Part shown: piece after piece, positions 4,560 through 30,723 of the stretch
Layout: each line of letters begins with the position of its first letter
How positions within the stretch are numbered: position 1 is the stretch's first letter
From: an uncultured Actinomycetota bacterium
GTDB lineage: Bacteria; Actinomycetota; Acidimicrobiia; Acidimicrobiales; RAAP-2
Reading direction: 5' to 3'
Length of the DNA: 64,000 bases
Assembly (NCBI GenBank): GCA_963715855.1
Contig: OY970279.1
Location: forward strand, 1,856,363 to 1,920,362
The notes under the pieces: generated by a model
Databases searched by the model: none
The model's input: only the letters and a program-made list of their open reading frames with translations
Told to the model about the DNA's origin: nothing
Position numbers and translations under genes: made by a program

Positions 4560-5855
4560 ATGAAATTCATTAGGAGGAGGGGCGTCGCGGGACTGGCCGC
4601 CGGGGTGGTTCTGGCCGCCACGGTGCTCACCGCGAGCCCGTCGTGGGGTAGTGCCAAGACCACGCTGACCATCTGGGAGAACTACGGGACGGAGCAGAAC
4701 GCCGTCGCGTTGAAGAACCTGGCAACGGCCTTCACCGCCCAGAACCCGTCGATCAAGATCAACGTCGTCTCCCAGCCGGCGAGTAACTACTTCTCGCTAC
4801 TGCAGGCGGCCGCGATCTCCAAGCACGGACCGGACCTCGCGGTGATGTGGACGGGGCTCTACGCGCTGCAGTACTCGAGCTATCTGGTGGGCCTCAAGGG
4901 CCACGTCCCGGCAGCTGACCTGGCCAAGATGCAGGGTCTCAGTTGGATGTCTCCGGGGCTAACCGGGTCCACTGACCCGCTGGTCATGCCCTTGGAGACC
5001 CAGTTCTATATCGGGTTCTACAACAAGAACCTGTTCGCGCGGGCCGGCATCAAGTCGGTGCCGACCGACTGGTCCCAGCTGTTCGCCGCGTGCACCAAGC
5101 TCAAGGCGATTCACGTCACCCCCTTCACCTACGGCAACGGTGGCCAGGCGCTGGGCGCGGAGTTCTACCCCTGGTACGACATGAGCTACATGATGATCGG
5201 GAACTACTCGGTCGGTCAGTGGAAGGACCTGTACAACGGTTCGATCCCGTGGACCTCGGCGGCCAACCAGTCGTCGCTGTCCAACTGGCACAAGCTGTTC
5301 ACGACCGGCTGCACCAACCCTGACGTCCTGACCAAAACCAACAACATCCAGGACTTCGAGAAGGGCAAGGCCGCGATGATCATGGACGGCACGTGGGACA
5401 CTGCCCAGTACACCCAGTCCATGGGCACCAAGGTGGCCGCATTCGTGCCGCCGTTCTCCGCCAAGCCCATCAAGGGCGTGGTGCAGTTCCCCGGTGACGG
5501 CCTGAGCGTGATGTCGTACTCGCCCAACAAGTCCGCGGCGTTCAAGTTCCTGACGTTCATGACCACCGCGAAGGCGGCGACGATCATCAACGCGGCCGGA
5601 CTGATCCCGGACATCACCGGCGCCTCGACCTCTAACCCGGTCAACCAGCAGATGCTCAACTTCGTCACCAGGGACCACATGACGGCGTACCCGATGCTCG
5701 ACAACGTCACCCAGGTGAACGTCGTCAACGCCGGGTCGACCGAACTGCCCACGGTGCTCAACGGACAGGCGACCGCCAAGGCGGCGCTCCAGAAGTTGCA
5801 GCAAACGCTGATGCAGTACCCGGCGTCCCAGCGCGGCAGCAAGTACACCGGTTAA
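4560..5855 (+). CDS. Carbohydrate ABC transporter substrate-binding protein
   Basis: Signal peptide, GPDL and GKAAMIMDGTW motifs, upstream of two permeases. Confidence 0.9.
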   Translation: MKFIRRRGVAGLAAGVVLAATVLTASPSWGSAKTTLTIWENYGTEQNAVALKNLATAFTAQNPSIKINVVSQPASNYFSLLQAAAISKHGPDLAVMWTGLYALQYSSYLVGLKGHVPAADLAKMQGLSWMSPGLTGSTDPLVMPLETQFYIGFYNKNLFARAGIKSVPTDWSQLFAACTKLKAIHVTPFTYGNGGQALGAEFYPWYDMSYMMIGNYSVGQWKDLYNGSIPWTSAANQSSLSNWHKLFTTGCTNPDVLTKTNNIQDFEKGKAAMIMDGTWDTAQYTQSMGTKVAAFVPPFSAKPIKGVVQFPGDGLSVMSYSPNKSAAFKFLTFMTTAKAATIINAAGLIPDITGASTSNPVNQQMLNFVTRDHMTAYPMLDNVTQVNVVNAGSTELPTVLNGQATAKAALQKLQQTLMQYPASQRGSKYTG

Positions 5856-5869
5856 CCCTCGGTAGCGTG

Positions 5870-5900
5870 ACCGGCCGGCGCATGACGTGCGCCGGCCGGT
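5870..5900 (+). terminator. Perfect 13-bp hairpin after the SBP gene (partial terminator or mRNA stabiliser)
   Basis: ACCGGCCGGCGCA-TGACG-TGCGCCGGCCGGT between the SBP and permease genes. Confidence 0.65.
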
Positions 5901-5925: not shown

Positions 5926-6858
5926 TTGAGCCTCAGTTCCACCATCGCGGTCCCGCGTCCCGAGGCACCGGTGCGACGCCGCGCGGTGCCGTCACTGCTC
6001 ACGCGTCGTCGCCGTCGCGTGGGGGTCGTGCTGACCCTGCCAGCGTTCATTCTGGTGGGCCTGTTGATCGTGTGGCCGATCCTGCAGGCCGTTTACTACT
6101 CGATGACCAACTGGGATGGACTGACCACGAAGTGGGTCGGCCCGAGTACCTGGTGGCAGGCCTTCCACAATCCGACGATGTGGCGCGCCCTGGAGAACAA
6201 TGCGCTCCTGCTGCTAGCGGTGCCCTTCGCGCTGGCGCTGCCGCTCGCGGTGGCGGTCATGCTGCACCAGCGCGTCGCGGGCTGGAAGGTGTTCCGGTCC
6301 ATCTACTTCCTGCCCACGGCCATCTCCTGGGTCGTGATCGGGTTGGTGGCCGAGCACTTCTTCGCCTATTCGGGCACGTTGAACTCGCTGCTGCACCACG
6401 TCGGCGTGTCCGGGGCCCACACCGACCTGCTCGGGTCGGAGTCGACGGCGTTGATCGCGTTAGGCATCACGTTCGTCTTCTCGATGATCGGGACCAACAC
6501 GATGATCTTCCTGACCGGACTGGCGACGCTCGACACCAGCCTGGAGGAGGCCGCGCGCATCGACGGCGCCGGCACCTGGCGGATCTTTCGCCACATCACC
6601 TTGCCGCACCTCAGCCGGTTCATCCAGCTGGCCTTCGTGATGACCGTCATCTCCGCGTTCTCGGCGCTCTTCAGCCTGATCTTTGTCATGACCGGTGGTG
6701 GTCCGGGCTACGCGACAACGACCATGGAGTTCCTCGTCTACCAGACCGGCTTCAACCAGTCCCAGTTCGGGACCGCCGCGCTCTACGGGCTCATCCTCTT
6801 CGTAATCACCGCCGTCGTGGGGGTCATCCAGCTGCGCCTGATCGGGGCGAACGACTAG
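5926..6858 (+). CDS. Carbohydrate ABC transporter permease
   Basis: Multiple TM segments, EAARIDGA (EAA loop). Confidence 0.92.
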   Translation: MSLSSTIAVPRPEAPVRRRAVPSLLTRRRRRVGVVLTLPAFILVGLLIVWPILQAVYYSMTNWDGLTTKWVGPSTWWQAFHNPTMWRALENNALLLLAVPFALALPLAVAVMLHQRVAGWKVFRSIYFLPTAISWVVIGLVAEHFFAYSGTLNSLLHHVGVSGAHTDLLGSESTALIALGITFVFSMIGTNTMIFLTGLATLDTSLEEAARIDGAGTWRIFRHITLPHLSRFIQLAFVMTVISAFSALFSLIFVMTGGGPGYATTTMEFLVYQTGFNQSQFGTAALYGLILFVITAVVGVIQLRLIGAND

Positions 6859-7706
6859 TGAGCACCGTCACCGTTCCTACCCCCGGCGTGCGTTCGCCGC
6901 GGCGCCGACGCGTTACGCGCATGCTCATTTTCGGTGCGATGGTCGTGATGGCCGTCGTGATGCTCTATCCGTTCGCGGTGATGATCCTCACCAGCTTCAA
7001 GACCCAGGCCCAGTACTACGCGGGCTCTGGCAGTTCGACCCAGAGCTGGCGTCAACTGGCCTCGGCGCTACCCATCTACCAACAGTTGCTCAACTCGACC
7101 ATCGTGTGCAGCGCGTCCATCGCGGTGATCCTGGTCGTGGGCGTGATGGCCGGGTTCGCGTTCGCCAAGCTCCAGTACCGCTTCGCCAACCTGATCTTCC
7201 TCGGCATCGTGAGCGCGATGATGGTGCCGCTGCAGGCGATCATCATCCCCGAGTACGTCAACGTCGCGCGCTTCGGTCTCACCAACGGCTATCTCGGCGC
7301 GGTCCTGGTGTACGCCGCGTTGGGAACGCCCTTTTCGATCTTCCTCTTCACCACGTACTTCCGCCGGGTCCCCGACGAGCTGGTCGAGGCCGGCATCTGT
7401 GACGGCCTCGGATACTGGGGCGTGCTGTGGCGCCTGGCGCTGCCGATGGCGCTGCCGGCCATCGCCACGGTGACCGTGTTGCAGTTCATCCAGATCTGGG
7501 ACGACCTATTGGTGGGACTGCTCTTCTTGCAGAACCCCGCCGAGAGGCCCATCACCGTGGGCCTGGCCGCATTGGCCGCCGGGCGCACGACGTCGATACC
7601 GCTGCTGATGGCGGGCTCTTTGGTGTCGGCGTTGCCAGCCATGCTCGTCTATCTGGGCTTCCAGCGTTTCTTAGTTCGCGGGCTGACGCTCGGGATCGAC
7701 CGGTAG
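6858..7706 (+). CDS. Carbohydrate ABC transporter permease
   Basis: GTG at 6858 overlaps the previous TAG; VPDELVEAGICDG EAA loop. Confidence 0.92.
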   Translation: MSTVTVPTPGVRSPRRRRVTRMLIFGAMVVMAVVMLYPFAVMILTSFKTQAQYYAGSGSSTQSWRQLASALPIYQQLLNSTIVCSASIAVILVVGVMAGFAFAKLQYRFANLIFLGIVSAMMVPLQAIIIPEYVNVARFGLTNGYLGAVLVYAALGTPFSIFLFTTYFRRVPDELVEAGICDGLGYWGVLWRLALPMALPAIATVTVLQFIQIWDDLLVGLLFLQNPAERPITVGLAALAAGRTTSIPLLMAGSLVSALPAMLVYLGFQRFLVRGLTLGIDR

Positions 7707-15214: not shown

Positions 15215-15237
15215 CATTCGGGGTAAATCTCAAGGAG

Positions 15238-15582
15238 TGGAGGTGCGGGCGTCGAAGCCCGGTCCGATGATTCCTTGGTGAACATTCTCCGAGCGCAGCT
15301 GTCAGAAGATTGTCGGGGTGGCCACTGCTGTCAGCTCCTTTGGACACCCGTAGTTAACTAAGTTTTCCCGCCGAGACCGTTAACGGATCAGGTCGGTAAG
15401 TCCCGCATTATGACGCCCTAGATCTGAACCGCAGGACCGGGTCCAGGAGGACGTTGCTACCTAAGCAGCAAGCGCAAGCGAAGGCTTGGCGTTTATTTAG
15501 TTTTCCGGCTCTTTAACGTGGTTCCGGAGACCACGGCTCGCTTCTTTCACCTCAACAATCAACGTCGAAACCATTCACCCCC
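15238..15582 (-). ncRNA. ssrA: tmRNA; tag peptide (A)AKPSLALAA encoded at 15490-15461
   Basis: 5' GGGGGTGAATGGTTTCGAC; 3' GGACCGGGCTTCGACGCCCGCACCTCCA; acceptor stem with G3-U pair; resume signal AATAAAC-GCC; smpB nearby. Confidence 0.95.
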
Positions 15583-19455: not shown

Positions 19456-20202
19456 ATGACTGCAGCGCGCGGCGACGGACGTCGACCGGACGAGGGACGA
19501 ACACTCACCTTCGAGCGTGACTTCACCGAGATGGCCGACGGGTCGGTGCTCGTCAGTGTCGGTCGTACCAGAGTTCTCTGCACCGCGTCGGTCGAGCGCG
19601 ACGTTCCGCGTTGGCTGCGTGGATCGGGTCGCGGATGGGTGACGGCCGAGTACTCGATGCTGCCGGGTTCGTCTCCCGAGCGAGTTGGTCGCGAGGCGGC
19701 GCGCGGTCGCCAATCCGGGCGCACCCATGAGATTCAGCGCCTCATCGGGCGGTCCCTGCGCGCGGTGACACAGCTCGAGATGATCGCCGACCTGCAAATC
19801 ACGGTGGACTGTGACGTCCTGCAGGCCGATGGGGGAACGCGCACCGCGTCCATCTGCGGCGGATTCATTGCATTGCACGACGCCATTACTCGTCTCGTCG
19901 CCGACGGCACACTCACCGAACACGCTCTCAGCGACGTGGTCGCCGGGGTCTCGGTCGGCGTCGTGGACGGCCAAGCGCTGTTGGACCTTCCATACGAAGA
20001 GGACGTGCGAGCCGACACCGATATGAACGTGGTCATGACTGGCGACGGGCGCTTCGTCGAAGTGCAGGGCACGGCCGAGCGCGAAGCGTTCTCGCGCACC
20101 GAACTCGATGTCCTCCTCGACCTCGCCCAGGCGGGCCTGCGGAGGATTCACGACGCCCAGCGCGAACTCATCGCGACGCCGCCCCGCGCACATTCGCGGT
20201 GA
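19456..20202 (+). CDS. rph: Ribonuclease PH
   Basis: [36 protein letters not shown]. Confidence 0.96.
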
Positions 20203-20783
20203 GCGACGTCGTCCTGGCGACGGCCAACCCGCACAAGGCTGCGGAGATGTCCGCGGTTCTCGCCGTGGCGGGCTTCACAGTTCTCCCACGTCCCGTCGAG
20301 GTGCCCGACGTTCCGGAGACAGCGGACACATTGGAAGGAAACGCCCTGCTCAAAGCTCGCGCCGTCAGCGAGGCCACTGGAATGGCGTCGGTCGCTGACG
20401 ACACTGGCCTCTTCGTTGACGCCCTCGACGGGCGCCCCGGCGTGCACAGCGCTCGGTACGCCGGCGAGACGGCGTCGGACGCCGACAACGTGGCCCGACT
20501 GCTCGGTGAACTGGCCGACGTGAAGTCGCCTCGACGAGCGCACTTTCGCACCGTCATTGTCGTGGCGTACCCCGACGGTACGCACGTCACTGTCGACGGC
20601 GAATTGGTCGGACAGATCATCGACGCACCGCGCGGCAGTGAAGGATTCGGCTACGACCCAGTATTCGAACCTGATGAGACGCCCGGTCGCACGTTGGCCG
20701 AACTCTCCGCCGAGGAAAAGAATCGCCGCTCGCACCGGGGTCGAGCCCTCGCCGCGCTCGCACGAATCGTTGCCGAGAAGTAG
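20199..20783 (+). CDS. rdgB: Non-canonical purine NTP pyrophosphatase (RdgB/HAM1)
   Basis: [32 protein letters not shown]. Confidence 0.94.
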
Positions 20784-20818
20784 TCGTTCACGCGCCGTTC
20801 ACCTTTAGGGTGGGGGGC

Positions 20819-21439
20819 GTGGGAGTCCGAGAGTTGCCGATGTTCCCCTTGGGCATGGTTGTTTTTCCCCACCAAGTCGTGGGACTGTGCGTCTTCGAGT
20901 CGCGCTACCAGCAGATGCTGTCGGACATCGAATCGGACCCCGTCTTCGGCACCTGTCTCATCGCGCGCGGCTCCGAGGTCGGCGGCGGAGACCAGCGCAC
21001 CGGCGTCGCCACCGTCGTGCACGTGATCGCCTCGCAGCCCCTGGACGACGACAAGACCTTGATGATGGTCGAAGGGACCCAGCGCGTCGAGATCTCCGAG
21101 TGGCTCGACGACGCTCCCTACCCGCGGGCGCGGGTCGACGATGCACCGCCGGAGGGAGACGCGGTCGACGCGCAGCTCCTGCGCTCGACCGAATCCGCCG
21201 TGCGCGCGTTACGCGCCATTCAGAGCGAGGTGGTGGCCGACCAGTGCCTCAAGAGCAACTGCGAGATGGACGAAGACCCATTGGTGCGTACGTGGCAGCT
21301 CTGCTCGATGGCCCCCATGCCGGTGTTCGATCAGTTCGCCGTGTTGAGTCTTCCGCGCACCAATGAACGGCTTCGACTGATCGCCGAGATCTGCTGCGAG
21401 CGATACGGCGACTACCAGCGCATCTTGGCGCTGGGCTGA
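20819..21439 (+). CDS. LON peptidase substrate-binding domain protein
   Basis: LPMFPL, FESRYQQM, GTCLIARGSEVGGG; GTG 20819 with TAGGGT 7 nt upstream. Confidence 0.82.
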   Translation: MGVRELPMFPLGMVVFPHQVVGLCVFESRYQQMLSDIESDPVFGTCLIARGSEVGGGDQRTGVATVVHVIASQPLDDDKTLMMVEGTQRVEISEWLDDAPYPRARVDDAPPEGDAVDAQLLRSTESAVRALRAIQSEVVADQCLKSNCEMDEDPLVRTWQLCSMAPMPVFDQFAVLSLPRTNERLRLIAEICCERYGDYQRILALG

Positions 21440-21811
21440 TCAGACCAACGCGACGAGATCCACGACGAAGATCAGAGTCTCGCCGGGCGCGATGACGCCA
21501 CCGGCGCCAGCGTTGCCGTAACCGAGGTGTGCCGGAATCACGAGGCGCCGACGACCGCCGACGCGCATTCCGACCACGCCCTGGTCCCAACCGGCGATGA
21601 CGTAGCCAGCGCCGAGGGGAAAGCTGAAGGTGTCGCCGCGATTCCACGACGCGTCGAACTCCTCTCCGCTCGACGCCGCGACGCCGACGTAGTGCACGAC
21701 CGCGGTCTGACCCTTGGTCGCTTCGTCGCCGGTGCCGACGATGATCTCCTCGATGACGAGGTCGTCCGGCGCCGGGCCGACGTGCGGCTCGACGAGGGGC
21801 TTGTCAGTCAC
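21440..21811 (-). CDS. FKBP-type peptidyl-prolyl cis-trans isomerase
   Basis: VHYVG, FDASWNRG, VIAGWDQG, GGRRRLVIPAHLGYG. Confidence 0.95.
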   Translation of the reverse strand: MTDKPLVEPHVGPAPDDLVIEEIIVGTGDEATKGQTAVVHYVGVAASSGEEFDASWNRGDTFSFPLGAGYVIAGWDQGVVGMRVGGRRRLVIPAHLGYGNAGAGGVIAPGETLIFVVDLVALV

Positions 21812-21820
21812 GAGTCGACT

Positions 21821-23365
21821 CTATCGACGACGCGTGCCACTGCCCACGACGCGCACGTTGCGAGCCTCGCGTCCCTTGGGACCGCTGGCCTCTTCGAACG
21901 CGATGGTCTGGCCTTGGGCGAGCGACTTGAACCCGTCGCCCTGGATGCTCGAGAAGTGGATGAACAGGTCGTCACCCTTGGCGTCCACGGCGAAGCCGTA
22001 ACCCTTGGAGTCGTTGAAGAAGCTCACGACCGCTTCGCCCGGACGACTCGACGGTCGTGTCTGGTCGACGGTGTTGACCCGACTGTGCGGCGCGCGGCGC
22101 TGCTCGCGCGCGACGGGCGGACGACGCTCACGCGTGAATCGGCTGCGCTCGGTGGGCGCGGTGCGTCGTGCCGGGGGAGCGGTGCGCCGCGCGGGGGCAT
22201 CGACCAATGGCGTCGACGCCTCGGCGTCGTCGACGGCGCCCAGGCGCTGCGCGGTCGCTGACTCGCGCGGCTCGATCGAAGCGGGCAGACCCAGGGTGCG
22301 CTGGAGGCGCTTGACCGCACCCAGGGTGTCCTCGGTCACCAGGGAGATGACCACACCGGAGGCTCCGGCGCGACCGGTACGCCCAGAACGGTGCAGGTAG
22401 TCAATGGCCTGGGCCGGCGGGTCGAAGTGAACGACGACGGGTAGTCCTTCCATGTGGATCCCGCGGGCGGCAACGTCCGTTGCCACGAGCACGCTGGTGC
22501 GACCGTCCTTGACGGCGCCGAGCGCACGCTCGCGCTGAGCCTGGGAACGGTCACCGTGCAGGGCCACCGCGCTCACGCCGCGATCGTGCAGCTGGCGAAC
22601 CAGACGATCCGCGCCGTGCTTGGTTCGCGAAAAAACGAGGGCTCGTCCGTGTTCGCCGACGATGTCGGCGACCATCTGGGGACGCTCCTCACGCGCCACG
22701 CGCCAAAAGAAGTGGTCGACGTCGCTCGGGGACTCTTCGTCGACGACGTCATGGACCGCGGCGTTCGTGGTAAAGGAACGCACCAACGAGGCAACGTCCG
22801 GTCCCATGGTCGCCGAGAAGAGCATCACGTGGCGGTCGCGGTTCGTGGCGCCGATCAGTCGACGCACGGCGGGCAGGAAGCCCATGTCGGCCATGCGGTC
22901 GGCCTCGTCGACGACGACGGTGGTCACCGCGCCGAGGTCCAGTGCACCCTGTTCGAGCATGTCTTCGAGCCGACCGGGGCAGGCCACGACGACGTCAACG
23001 CCGTGGTTGAGGGCCTTGCGCGCGACGCTGTAGGAGGTACCTCCGTAGATGCAGATGACCCGGCGACCGTGGTCGCTGGTCAGCTGGGCGAGTTCCTTCT
23101 GGACCTGGGCGGCGAGCTCGCGCGTGGGCACGAGAACCAGGGCGTGGGGCTTGCGGGGCCGCGCCGGCTGGAGGCGAGCGATGAGGGGTAGACCGAAGGC
23201 TAGGGTCTTGCCCGAACCCGTCGCGGCCTTGCCAACGACGTCGCGGCCGGCCAGGGCGTCGGGTAGAGCGGCCTCTTGAATGGGGAACGCTTCGTGAATA
23301 CCGCGCGCGGCGAGGCGGTCCACCAGGCGTGCGGGCACGCCGAGGTCGGCAAAGGATACAGACAT
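21821..23365 (-). CDS. DEAD-box RNA helicase with C-terminal cold-shock domain
   Basis: ATGSGKT, PTRELAAQ, DEADRM, FSAT, HRSGRTGR; then FFNDSKGYGF (RNP1) and LFIHFSSI (RNP2) in the same frame; AGGAG RBS before ATG 23365. Confidence 0.92.
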   Translation of the reverse strand: MSVSFADLGVPARLVDRLAARGIHEAFPIQEAALPDALAGRDVVGKAATGSGKTLAFGLPLIARLQPARPRKPHALVLVPTRELAAQVQKELAQLTSDHGRRVICIYGGTSYSVARKALNHGVDVVVACPGRLEDMLEQGALDLGAVTTVVVDEADRMADMGFLPAVRRLIGATNRDRHVMLFSATMGPDVASLVRSFTTNAAVHDVVDEESPSDVDHFFWRVAREERPQMVADIVGEHGRALVFSRTKHGADRLVRQLHDRGVSAVALHGDRSQAQRERALGAVKDGRTSVLVATDVAARGIHMEGLPVVVHFDPPAQAIDYLHRSGRTGRAGASGVVISLVTEDTLGAVKRLQRTLGLPASIEPRESATAQRLGAVDDAEASTPLVDAPARRTAPPARRTAPTERSRFTRERRPPVAREQRRAPHSRVNTVDQTRPSSRPGEAVVSFFNDSKGYGFAVDAKGDDLFIHFSSIQGDGFKSLAQGQTIAFEEASGPKGREARNVRVVGSGTRRR

Positions 23366-23495
23366 TGAGACTCCTACGAGTTGAGCTGAGCCCAACCCGG
23401 AGCACAGTGCTCGAATCGGTCTCCGTCACGAATCGCGACGAAACAGCGTTTCCCACGCTAGCAGATGGCACGAAGCGGCCAAGCGACCCCCTTCG

Positions 23496-23574
23496 TGCGG
23501 GCGGCGGGATTCGAACCCACACTCCGAAGAACTGGTACCTAAAACCAGCGCGTCTACCATTCCGCCACGCCCGC
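23496..23574 (-). tRNA. tRNA-Leu(TAG)
   Basis: GCGGGCG acceptor stem, CTGGT-TTTAGGT-ACCAG anticodon arm, long variable arm, TTCGAAT T-loop; CCA not encoded. Confidence 0.96.
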
Positions 23575-23636
23575 CGGACATCGCAGTCTACGCGTCGAAG
23601 GCCGAAGAGCAAGGTAGCGCGCTGTAGATTGGGCGC

Positions 23637-24224
23637 ATGATTACCTCCTCCGTAGCCGACGGGATCGGCAACCCAGACCTCAACCAGCGACTGCTGCGCG
23701 AGCGCATCATCTTCCTTGGTTCCGTCGTGGACCAGGAGTCCGCCAACCGCATCTGCGCCGAGCTCCTGCTGCTCGAGGCCGAGGACCGCGAGCGCGACAT
23801 CAGCCTCTACATCAACTCGCCCGGCGGGTCCGTCATCGACGGCCTGGCCATCTACGACACCATGCAGTACGTCAACTGCGACATCCGCACGATCTGCGTG
23901 GGGATGGCGGCCTCGATGGGCCAGGTCCTGCTGTGTGCGGGCGCGCACGGCAAGCGCTTCTCGCTGCCCCACAGCCGGATCCTCATGCACCAGCCCTCCA
24001 TGGGCGGGATGCAGGGACAGGCGTCGGACATCGCCATCCAGGCCGAGCAGATCATCTACCTGAAGAAGATCGTGGCCGAGCGCATTGCCTTCCACACCGG
24101 ACAGGACGTCGACCGCATCGACGTCGACTCTGACCGTGATCGTTGGTTCACCGCGCAAGAGGCCGTGGAGTACGGCTTCATCGACGCCGTCATCGACCGC
24201 TCGGCAGTCCGCCAAGAGGCCTAG
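23637..24224 (+). CDS. clpP: ATP-dependent Clp protease proteolytic subunit
   Basis: [17 protein letters not shown] (Ser), MHQP (His), DRDRWF (Asp). Confidence 0.96.
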
Positions 24225-25162
24225 TGACCGACCCGTCCCCGGCGCGGGTGGAGCGACGCTCGCTCGAGAACGCGCCGGTCCGGGTGGTCAGTGCGCGCGC
24301 CAGTCTGCCGGCGCGACTACGCAACCTCGCGTCACGCCGTGAGTTGCTGACCGGACTCATCTTCTCGGACATACGTATCAAGTACAAGGGGTCAGCCCTC
24401 GGCGTCTTCTGGTCGATGCTCTCACCGGCCTTCACGCTGGCCATCTACTTTTTGGTGTTCTCCGTCGTGTTGAAGAACGGCATTCCGAACTTCGTCGTCT
24501 ATCTGTTCTCGGGCCTGGTCGTGTGGAACCTCTTCATGACCGCGGTCGGTTCGGCGACCGGCGTCATCGTCGACCGCGCCGGACTCGTCAAGAAGGTCTC
24601 CTTCCCGCGCGAGATCCTGCCGCTCTCCAACGTCGGATCCTCCGTCATTTACTTCTTCATCCAGCTCGGCGTTTTCGCCGTGTTGCTCCTGGTGATCGGC
24701 CACGCGCCGGACTGGGGATTCATCTGGATCCTGCCCATCTCCTTCGTCGCGCTTTACCTGCTGACCGCGTCGGTGGCCGTGGTGATGTCGGCGGTGACGG
24801 TCTACATGCGCGACGTGCGGCACCTGATGGACGTGGTCCTGCAGCTGTGGTTCTGGCTGACGCCGGTGGTCTACTCCTACGAGCACTCCATTGCCGCGCC
24901 GCTGCACCGCCACGGGATCTCGGTGCTCTACTTCCTCAATCCGGTGACCCTGATCGTCCTGACATTCCAGCGATTCTTCTACGTGAGCACCACGGTGCGC
25001 TCGACCATCGCGCCGCACCCGATCTTGCAGATCCTGCCCACGTGGCCGATGTCGACCTACTTCTATCTGAACGTGGGTTTGGTCGGCATCATGCTGGTCC
25101 TCTTCCTGGTGGCTGAGTCGATCTTCGGCCGCCTCGAGGGCAACTTCGAATCGGAGCTGTAA
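24224..25162 (+). CDS. ABC-2 polysaccharide exporter permease (Wzm-like)
   Basis: IKYKGSALGVFWSML, KKVSFPREI, FWLTPVVY; GTG overlaps the clpP stop. Confidence 0.88.
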   Translation: MTDPSPARVERRSLENAPVRVVSARASLPARLRNLASRRELLTGLIFSDIRIKYKGSALGVFWSMLSPAFTLAIYFLVFSVVLKNGIPNFVVYLFSGLVVWNLFMTAVGSATGVIVDRAGLVKKVSFPREILPLSNVGSSVIYFFIQLGVFAVLLLVIGHAPDWGFIWILPISFVALYLLTASVAVVMSAVTVYMRDVRHLMDVVLQLWFWLTPVVYSYEHSIAAPLHRHGISVLYFLNPVTLIVLTFQRFFYVSTTVRSTIAPHPILQILPTWPMSTYFYLNVGLVGIMLVLFLVAESIFGRLEGNFESEL

Positions 25163-30647: not shown

Positions 30648-30723
30648 GCGGACGTAGCTCAGTTGGTAGAGCGCGACCTTGCCAAGGTCGAGGTCGCCGG
30701 TTCGAGCCCGGTCGTCCGCTCCA
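30648..30723 (+). tRNA. tRNA-Gly(GCC)
   Basis: GCGGACG acceptor stem, CGACC-TTGCCAA-GGTCG anticodon arm, TTCGAGC T-loop, encoded CCA. Confidence 0.97.

Follow-up and report, generated by a model that had tools for sequence, protein, structure and literature searches.

Can a DEAD-box RNA helicase and a complete cold-shock domain (CSD) be parts of one bacterial polypeptide and, if so, what might the second domain do for the first? The question is raised by a gene at positions 21821 to 23365, minus strand, of a 64,000-nucleotide stretch of DNA from an uncultured Actinomycetota bacterium of the class Acidimicrobiia (contig OY970279.1, positions 1,856,363 to 1,920,362), referred to below as the window. 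A first-pass annotation, made from the letters of the window, had proposed that a DEAD-box helicase continues in one frame, past an arginine/proline-rich linker, into a CSD of the CspA type. We find that the fusion is a genuine single protein and that its architecture is widespread in the Acidimicrobiia rather than rare. Our preferred reading, to which we assign a probability of about 0.6, is that of an expressed helicase whose CSD and basic leash would serve as a low-specificity anchor and holder of single-stranded RNA (ssRNA).

One reading frame for a helicase and a cold-shock domain

The gene and the parts of its product are as follows.

21821..23365, minus strand: helicase-CSD gene, 514 codons plus a TAG stop at 21821-21823; a single open reading frame (ORF) with three Pfam domains in one frame
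22793..23284, minus strand: RecA-like domain 1 (Pfam DEAD, PF00270; amino acids 28-191); 3e-46, 157.7 bits vs a cut-off of 26
22364..22675, minus strand: RecA-like domain 2 (Pfam Helicase_C, PF00271; amino acids 231-334); 4e-27, 95.1 bits vs a cut-off of 23.5
22049..22237, minus strand: Arg/Pro/Ala-rich linker (amino acids 377-439), disordered by its AlphaFold2 confidence (pLDDT 30-36) and composition
21848..22033, minus strand: CSD (Pfam PF00313; amino acids 445-506), with five beta-strands, RNP1 KGYGFA and RNP2 LFIHF
21824..21847, minus strand: short basic C-terminal tail VGSGTRRR

As the first-pass annotation had it, helicase and CSD form one polypeptide of 514 amino acids, and the CSD has no start codon or ribosome-binding site of its own, neither having been found between the domains. 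The minus-strand frame is open from helicase motif VI through the CSD, with zero stops between them. Translation is taken to start at the ATG at 23365, which is preceded by AGGAG (23371-23375) at a spacing of 5 nt and at which the protein conservation of orthologues begins (MS[VM]SFADLG). An in-frame TTG at 23395 is an unlikely start and sits within the conserved non-coding leader described below. Neither a free csp gene nor a second DEAD-box gene was found in the 64-kb window.

The helicase core carries what is, to judge from its sequence, a canonical and catalytically complete DEAD-box motif set, and is predicted to be an RNA helicase. Domain 1 includes the Q motif (FPIQ30) and motifs I (AATGSGKT47-54), Ia (PTRELA80), II (DEAD153) and III (SAT184), and domain 2 includes motifs V (TDVAARG296) and VI (HRSGRTGRAG325); all of the signature motifs are invariant in an alignment of 63 homologues. 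AlphaFold2, used with this alignment, modelled the core at a pLDDT of ~85-95, and the fold matched those of Hera, CshA and DbpA with a probability of 1.00. The best matches in the PDB were Hera (4kbf), CshA (5ivl), DbpA (7pli) and Dbp2, with alignments that stop near residue 360-380, and no PDB chain was found that spans core and CSD together. By sequence the core is about equally near to DbpA and to CshA/RhlE. It missed the NCBIfam equivalog cut-offs for CshA (315 vs 646), RhlE (291 vs 743), CsdA (272 vs 890), DeaD (257 vs 989), SrmB (270 vs 507) and RhlB (263 vs 564), and the RhlE, RhlE1 and RhlE2 scores were all far under their cut-offs. Membership in the DbpA/YxiN subfamily also fails: PF03880 gave no match, and NF008744 scored 321.4 vs a cut-off of 524, the match ending at residue 374. 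In 4 of 4 metagenome or metatranscriptome runs, read depth spiked to as much as ~4900x at 22859-22919, the segment around DEAD/motif II (VVDEADRMADMGF); most likely, this spike is due to cross-mapping of many DEAD-box genes of the soil community and is not a feature of the gene.

A full CspA-like domain with RNP1 and RNP2 had been placed at about 21840-22040, and the Pfam CSD profile bears this out at 21848-22033 (7.4e-18; 64.6 bits vs a gathering cut-off of 27; profile positions 3-65 of 66). The domain aligns over its full length, at ~50% identity, to cold-shock proteins (Csps) of solved structure, of which Neisseria Csp 3cam was the best match (1.4e-17), followed by Listeria CspA, CspC and B. 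subtilis CspB. All 7 aromatic contact residues of CspB are kept or conservatively replaced (W8 by F449, F15 by Y456, F17 by F458, F27 by F468, H29 by H470, F30 by F471 and F38 by F479), the sole changes being W to F and F to Y. These seven positions are invariant within the clade in the 63-sequence alignment, in which more than 40 columns of the CSD are invariant, a density that equals that of the helicase motifs, while the linker varies. By these alignments nothing is missing from the CSD, which is subject to strong purifying selection, and its RNA-binding face, as judged by the CspB contact positions, is its most conserved part. The strands in the AlphaFold2 model (444-451, 456-461, 466-470, 487-495 and 498-506; pLDDT ~83-85) predict a five-stranded antiparallel beta-barrel. 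Scores against the named free Csps missed their NCBIfam cut-offs (CspE 65.9 vs 120; CspC 62.8 vs 137; CspD 59.5 vs 115; CspA 55.7 vs 130). The CSD of the window type is derived, with the clade-invariant residues S448, F449 and A459 (KWFN to SFFN and GFGFI to GYGFA).

Core and CSD are joined by a linker of 63 residues, 14 of them Arg, whose net charge is +6 and in which the peptide PARRTAP occurs twice in tandem (PARRTAP-PARRTAP; nucleotides 22154-22195, minus strand). Linkers of homologues are 26-162 amino acids long and poorly conserved in sequence yet always R-rich; such a range of lengths points to a leash rather than a docked domain. The pTM of the whole-protein model, 0.53, is the kind of value to be expected of domains that ride on a flexible leash. 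A G/R-rich C-terminal tail is kept in the clade consensus.

Two homologue searches, for each of which the best 120 of at least 8000 candidates were listed, gave at least 240 distinct 90%-identity clusters with the fusion among the matches listed, and all listed matches were from Acidimicrobiia. PF00313, PF00270 and PF00271 were present together in 120 of the 120 best listed homologues (61-98% identity) and again in 120 of the 120 matches listed for a profile of the most divergent fusions. One homologue (P0001), 98% identical and also 514 amino acids long, came from three independent contigs in two sources. We also compared the gene with independent soil metagenome contigs (~92% identical), which cover 21700-22189 and 22194-22907 with zero indels; the first part includes the start of the downstream FKBP gene, the helicase stop codon, the CSD and most of the linker. 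Third codon positions of the helicase-CSD frame account for 27 of the 31 substitutions listed within the ORF in these contigs. The linker was checked for a stop or frameshift, as the first-pass annotation had advised, with Logan contigs of relatives 90-95% identical, the best word share of any run being 0.24; none was found in the contigs covering these two segments, and the frame is continuous.

The independent contigs end at 22189-22194, inside the linker repeat region, and 183-184 nt (from 22037/22038 to 22222) seem to be missing from some contigs, with anchors of only 25 nt. The skips probably come from relatives with shorter linkers, and breaks and apparent skips together suggest linker-length polymorphism among close relatives. 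In two nanopore-based metagenome-assembled genomes (MAGs), L010 (~6837-7509) and L015 (~7193-7516), the CSD is off-frame from the core, the shift lying inside the GC-rich linker. Probably, these shifts are single-base assembly errors in GC-rich sequence rather than true splits or a decay into pseudogenes. That the window, too, really holds a helicase gene and a separate csp gene, with a linker stop or frameshift erased by mis-assembly, might be argued from these two MAGs and from relatives with free csp genes beside their helicases, but the single frame kept by the 240 listed clusters of homologues, with Illumina data among their sources, the uninterrupted fusion in 22 species genomes, the absence of a start codon or ribosome-binding site before the CSD, the indel-free contigs with third-position substitutions through linker and CSD, and the shifted frame of L010 and L015, which stays open far upstream of the CSD as fits a single-base error, make this vanishingly improbable and effectively refute it.

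Distribution and origin of the fusion

Loci closest to that of the window were all in Acidimicrobiia MAGs (Acidimicrobiaceae, Acidimicrobiales) from soils, peat/permafrost, lakes and other habitats, and the sequencing runs with related sequence were soil and rhizosphere metagenomes. Among 80 species-level loci we counted 22 uninterrupted fusions, 2 that were frame-shifted and 1 cut by a contig end, the remainder being CSD-less helicases. A CSD-only query against a representative library of 1.84 billion proteins had as its top matches eukaryote-type multi-CSD proteins, in which repeat scores add up; its only helicase fusions were P0144 and some fragments, and it is uninformative on taxonomy.

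The first-pass annotation had allowed that the architecture might prove to be already common and studied. Common it is, by the at least 240 clusters and the 22 of 80 genomes, but no published description or solved structure of a DEAD-box-CSD fusion was found in the full-text literature or the PDB. A JGI product name already joins the two parts ('superfamily II DNA/RNA helicase/cold shock CspA family protein'), and domain databases presumably list the DEAD-Helicase_C-CSD architecture. The fusion is known to annotation databases and its family is well known; as a functional type it appears unstudied. In a 2011 survey of bacterial DEAD-box architectures, the only extension discussed is the DbpA RNA-binding domain (PMC3093544), and helicases go unmentioned in a 2021 review devoted to the cold-shock domain (PMC7825780).

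Two neighbouring genes serve below as markers of gene order.

21440..21811, minus strand: FKBP-type peptidyl-prolyl isomerase gene (Pfam FKBP_C, 6.7e-30), beginning 9 nt past the helicase stop
23495..23574, minus strand: tRNA-Leu (anticodon UAG), directly upstream of the helicase gene on the same strand

Co-transcription of the helicase and FKBP genes is probable, and an intrinsic terminator scan gave no terminator-like site between them. Ten loci (L001-L010) have the same neighbourhood as the window, namely ABC-2 permease, ClpP, tRNA-Leu, helicase-CSD, FKBP, a Lon-N-domain protein and RdgB; the other fusions lie in different gene contexts.

In a neighbour-joining tree of helicase cores, a 19-member clade composed entirely of fusions, and including that of the window, was recovered in 93 of 100 bootstraps, and monophyly of all fusions in 0 of 100. 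Three further fusions (L014, L018 and L020) grouped with a CSD-less clade in 73 of 100. Another feature of the CSD-less clade (L026, L034, L036, L039, L040 and L043-L045) is an FKBP gene immediately 3' of the helicase, so that orthologues at this position may either have or lack the CSD; the helicase-FKBP pairing, common to the fusion and CSD-less clades, is therefore independent of the CSD. The tails of CSD-less relatives are Gly/Arg/Lys/Pro-rich and of low complexity, with no Pfam domain. The premise that bacterial DEAD-box C-termini are usually basic tails or DbpA-type RNA recognition motifs (RRMs) holds, and the nearest CSD-less relatives are basic-tailed only. In a CSD tree, which is weak, the CSDs of L014, L018 and L020 nest among free Csps of Acidimicrobiia, and window-type CSDs form a derived cluster. 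A free csp gene directly adjoins a CSD-less helicase in three loci, in tandem in the first below and divergently in the other two (coordinates are those of the loci).

5974-6297, plus strand: free csp of L067 ('Ca. Poriferisodalis'), with the helicase from ~6667
5478-5678, minus strand: free csp of L078, with the helicase from ~6004
5619-5873, minus strand: free csp of L064, beside a CSD-less helicase

Such adjacency is a gene-neighbourhood link and plausibly represents a precursor state, or route, to fusion. Because the fusions are not monophyletic, the CSD-less relatives have plain basic tails, free csp genes are found next to helicases and the CSD tree separates the two CSD types, we suggest that a neighbouring csp was probably captured repeatedly onto the end of a basic tail. 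The alternative history, in which one early fusion was later lost many times, is less likely.

The 5' leader

Between tRNA-Leu and the ATG lie ~95 nt that are far more conserved than is expected for orthologues with 65-79% protein identity. The leader, at 23366-23463 on the minus strand, is also present upstream of the helicase start in L001-L013 and L081-L159. Its elements are listed here in 5' to 3' order.

23455..23463, minus strand: putative extended -10 element TGCTAGCGT (TGnTAnnnT), 32 nt 3' of the tRNA-Leu 3' end
23424..23440, minus strand: hairpin P1 (CGUCGC-GAUUC-GUGACG), with covariation
23388..23423, minus strand: hairpin P2 (GAGACCGAUUCG ... CGGGUUGGGCUC), the stem conserved and the loop variable in sequence and length
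23371..23398, minus strand: possible alternative hairpin P3 (GGGUUGG / CUCAACUC), which stops immediately before the Shine-Dalgarno AGGAG

Hairpin P1 showed compensatory changes at 4 of its 6 pairs in sequence set A3, and 0 of 500 shuffles reached the observed covariation; in an independent metagenomic set (A5), one of its pairs was CG in 29 copies and UA in 12, with no mismatch. For P2, 97.6% of cells were paired in set A3, aligned to a covariance model (CM), and the changes were of the wobble-compatible kind only; the invariance of the P2 stem in A5 is owing to the way in which those sequences were selected. P3 excludes P2, since the 3' arm of P2 is reused for pairing with UCAACUC just before the Shine-Dalgarno sequence. 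It was 93% paired, with one compensatory AU to GC event, and the minimum-free-energy fold of the window's own leader prefers it; on this weak evidence P3 is a possible alternative hairpin.

Across 15 + 43 divergent copies, the TGCTAGCGT block differed solely where TGnTAnnnT has an 'n', a pattern that points to a putative extended -10 box rather than to RNA structure; the transcription start is predicted near 23447-23449. RNAalifold proposed a long-range 'helix 1', in which CUGCUAG would pair with GUAGGAG in what resembles an anti-Shine-Dalgarno interaction and which we rejected: its 5' arm varies like TGnTAnnnT, its pairing is lost in freshwater variants, and it is better read as the extended -10 box. 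A scan for sigma-70 consensus promoters and intrinsic terminators gave nothing, the consensus it uses being a misfit for actinobacterial promoters.

The leader CM, built from ten copies, had matches that lie solely upstream of window-clade helicase genes, including those of the non-syntenic loci L011-L013. It also matched 50 further metagenomic loci, where the complete downstream gene was a helicase-CSD fusion in 39 of 40 cases; about 30 of 80 metagenome pattern matches were discarded as chance occurrences inside unrelated coding sequences (UvrA-like and others). A permissive E-value scan of positions 20000-25000 found no Rfam 15 family for the leader (such as the cspA thermoregulator) and returned only the tRNA and two sub-threshold chance matches elsewhere. 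Genes of the csp and deaD kinds typically have long, structured leaders, and a gene-specific structured leader suggests post-transcriptional control here.

Possible roles of the attached domain

In the preferred reading, the CSD and basic linker would act as an ssRNA anchor of low specificity on a flexible leash. By analogy with the RNA-binding domains of DbpA, YxiN and Hera and with basic tails, the anchor might concentrate the helicase core locally on structured RNAs; it might also capture the strand freed by local ATP-dependent unwinding and so prevent re-annealing. The fusion would then hard-wire a helicase-Csp partnership as a 1:1 arrangement in cis, with its expression probably controlled post-transcriptionally through the gene-specific leader, the trigger being possibly temperature or the protein itself. 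The following points weigh against this reading. The support for transcription comes from metatranscriptome contigs of ~90%-identical relatives, which possibly contain DNA. The habitats include ordinary temperate soils, so that a specifically cold-related role is not implied. Also, the derived, clade-invariant substitutions in the CSD could reflect a specialised target instead of generic ssRNA. A bolder version, which we hold as a tentative possibility, is that repeated csp capture has made a distinct subfamily of 'unwind-and-hold' chaperones that would autoregulate through the leader (P1 and a P2/P3 switch), would respond to temperature or RNA folding and would have no described counterpart.

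An alternative, unlikely as we judge it, is that the CSD, like the RNA-binding domain of DbpA/YxiN, directs the helicase to one specific RNA, such as an rRNA precursor in subunit assembly or the gene's own leader. The same residues S448, F449 and A459 would fit such targeting, as would the proximity of the core to DbpA, about as close as to CshA/RhlE, and the restriction of the structured leader, with its pyrimidine-rich single-stranded CUCAxCUCAACUCGU, to the upstream side of these genes. However, CSDs have limited sequence specificity for ssRNA and single-stranded DNA (ssDNA) (PMC7825780), other fusion clades have ordinary Csp-like CSDs and are without the leader, and the gene context is not rRNA-related.

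A regulatory or autoinhibitory role, in which the CSD would fold back on the core or compete for its RNA cleft until relieved by cold or excess ssRNA, appears rather improbable. Conservation over the whole CSD surface is compatible with a protein-protein face, and accessory domains modulate core closure in several DEAD-box proteins. Yet the linker is predicted to be disordered and has a six-fold range of lengths, the pTM of 0.53 suggests no fixed inter-domain geometry, and the most conserved CSD positions are the RNA-contact aromatics. It is very improbable that the CSD is a CspD-/Y-box-like ssDNA binder that couples the ATPase to replication or transcription: CSDs discriminate poorly between ssDNA and ssRNA (PMC7825780) and the CspD family gave weak NCBIfam scores, but the core is a canonical DEAD-box core (Q motif, DEAD, SAT, HRSGRTGRAG) of an RNA-acting family, the best CSD matches are RNA chaperones of the CspE/CspC/CspA type, and the neighbours are housekeeping protein-quality-control genes.

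The anchor-and-holder reading can be set beside several known systems. In DbpA/YxiN and Thermus Hera, too, a pair of RecA-like domains is followed by a flexible linker and by a small RNA-binding domain, rich in beta-structure, through which the core is tethered to RNA; their accessory domain is of the RRM type, whereas that of the fusion is an OB-fold CSD, and the DbpA/YxiN domain recognises hairpin 92 of 23S rRNA, whereas CSDs are low-specificity ssRNA binders. The B. subtilis helicases CshA and CshB and the chaperone CspB resemble the fusion in that a cold-related DEAD-box helicase and a CSD protein are proposed to unwind RNA between them and to prevent it from pairing again; Hunger et al. 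in 2006 (cited in PMC3093544), to go by the title, reportedly dealt with this DEAD-box helicase-Csp cooperation in Bacillus subtilis. Those proteins are separate, with independent stoichiometry and regulation, whereas the Acidimicrobiia fusion is covalent and 1:1; the cores match closely (CshA, 5ivl), but the C-terminus with which CshA dimerises and binds RNase Y is absent from the fusion. Helicases of the RhlE type share the R-rich, disordered basic tail, to which the fusion adds a folded CSD. Free CspA, CspB, CspC and CspE share with the fused domain ~50% identity over the full length, RNP1/RNP2 and the predicted five-stranded barrel, but they are standalone proteins of ~70 amino acids, while the fused CSD, with its derived SFFN and GYGFA, is part of a 514-amino-acid protein.

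As an analogy only, Rho and RNase R are also cases in which an RNA motor or nuclease has a CSD-type OB fold covalently attached to it for loading or holding the substrate. The N-terminal domain of Rho is CSD-like. We observed Pfam cross-matches between CSD, OB_RNB and Rho_RNA_bind, and the CSDs of RNase R are covered elsewhere (PMC12320835). Rho is a hexameric RecA-type translocase and RNase R an RNB exonuclease; their CSDs lie at the N-terminus, and neither family is related to the fusion. In eukaryotes, RNA chaperones with a CSD physically cooperate with RNA helicases in the pairs AtCSP3-AtRH7 (PMC4846089) and Lin28-RHA (PMC3089476); unlike the fusion, these pairs are non-covalent, with helicases of other subfamilies and eukaryotic regulation.

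The idea that a helicase opens RNA and a Csp holds it open is based mostly on separate proteins, through data on co-localisation, interaction and genetics, and a strongly conserved natural fusion is 'Rosetta-stone' evidence for a functional helicase-Csp partnership. In the fusion the two are also present at a defined ratio of 1:1, which makes the share of the CSD in the activity measurable by simple deletion or point mutation, with natural variation to draw upon: linkers of 26-162 residues, several independent fusions and CSD-less positional orthologues. It identifies a subfamily of helicases that is predominant in an abundant but poorly cultured class of bacteria from soil, peat and freshwater, and its gene-specific structured leader is, as a modest second novelty, a new candidate cis-regulatory RNA for Actinomycetota. 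For specialists in helicases and RNA chaperones, we regard it as a neat and useful natural experiment, not a shock.

A reading of the locus as part of a defence system or mobile element was dropped, the context being housekeeping (ClpP, FKBP, Lon-N-domain protein, RdgB/Ham1, tRNA and tmRNA). Elsewhere in the window, a tmRNA gene with the tag peptide AKPSLALAA lies at 15237-15582 (minus strand), and a tRNA-Gly(GCC) gene lies at 30648-30723 (plus strand).

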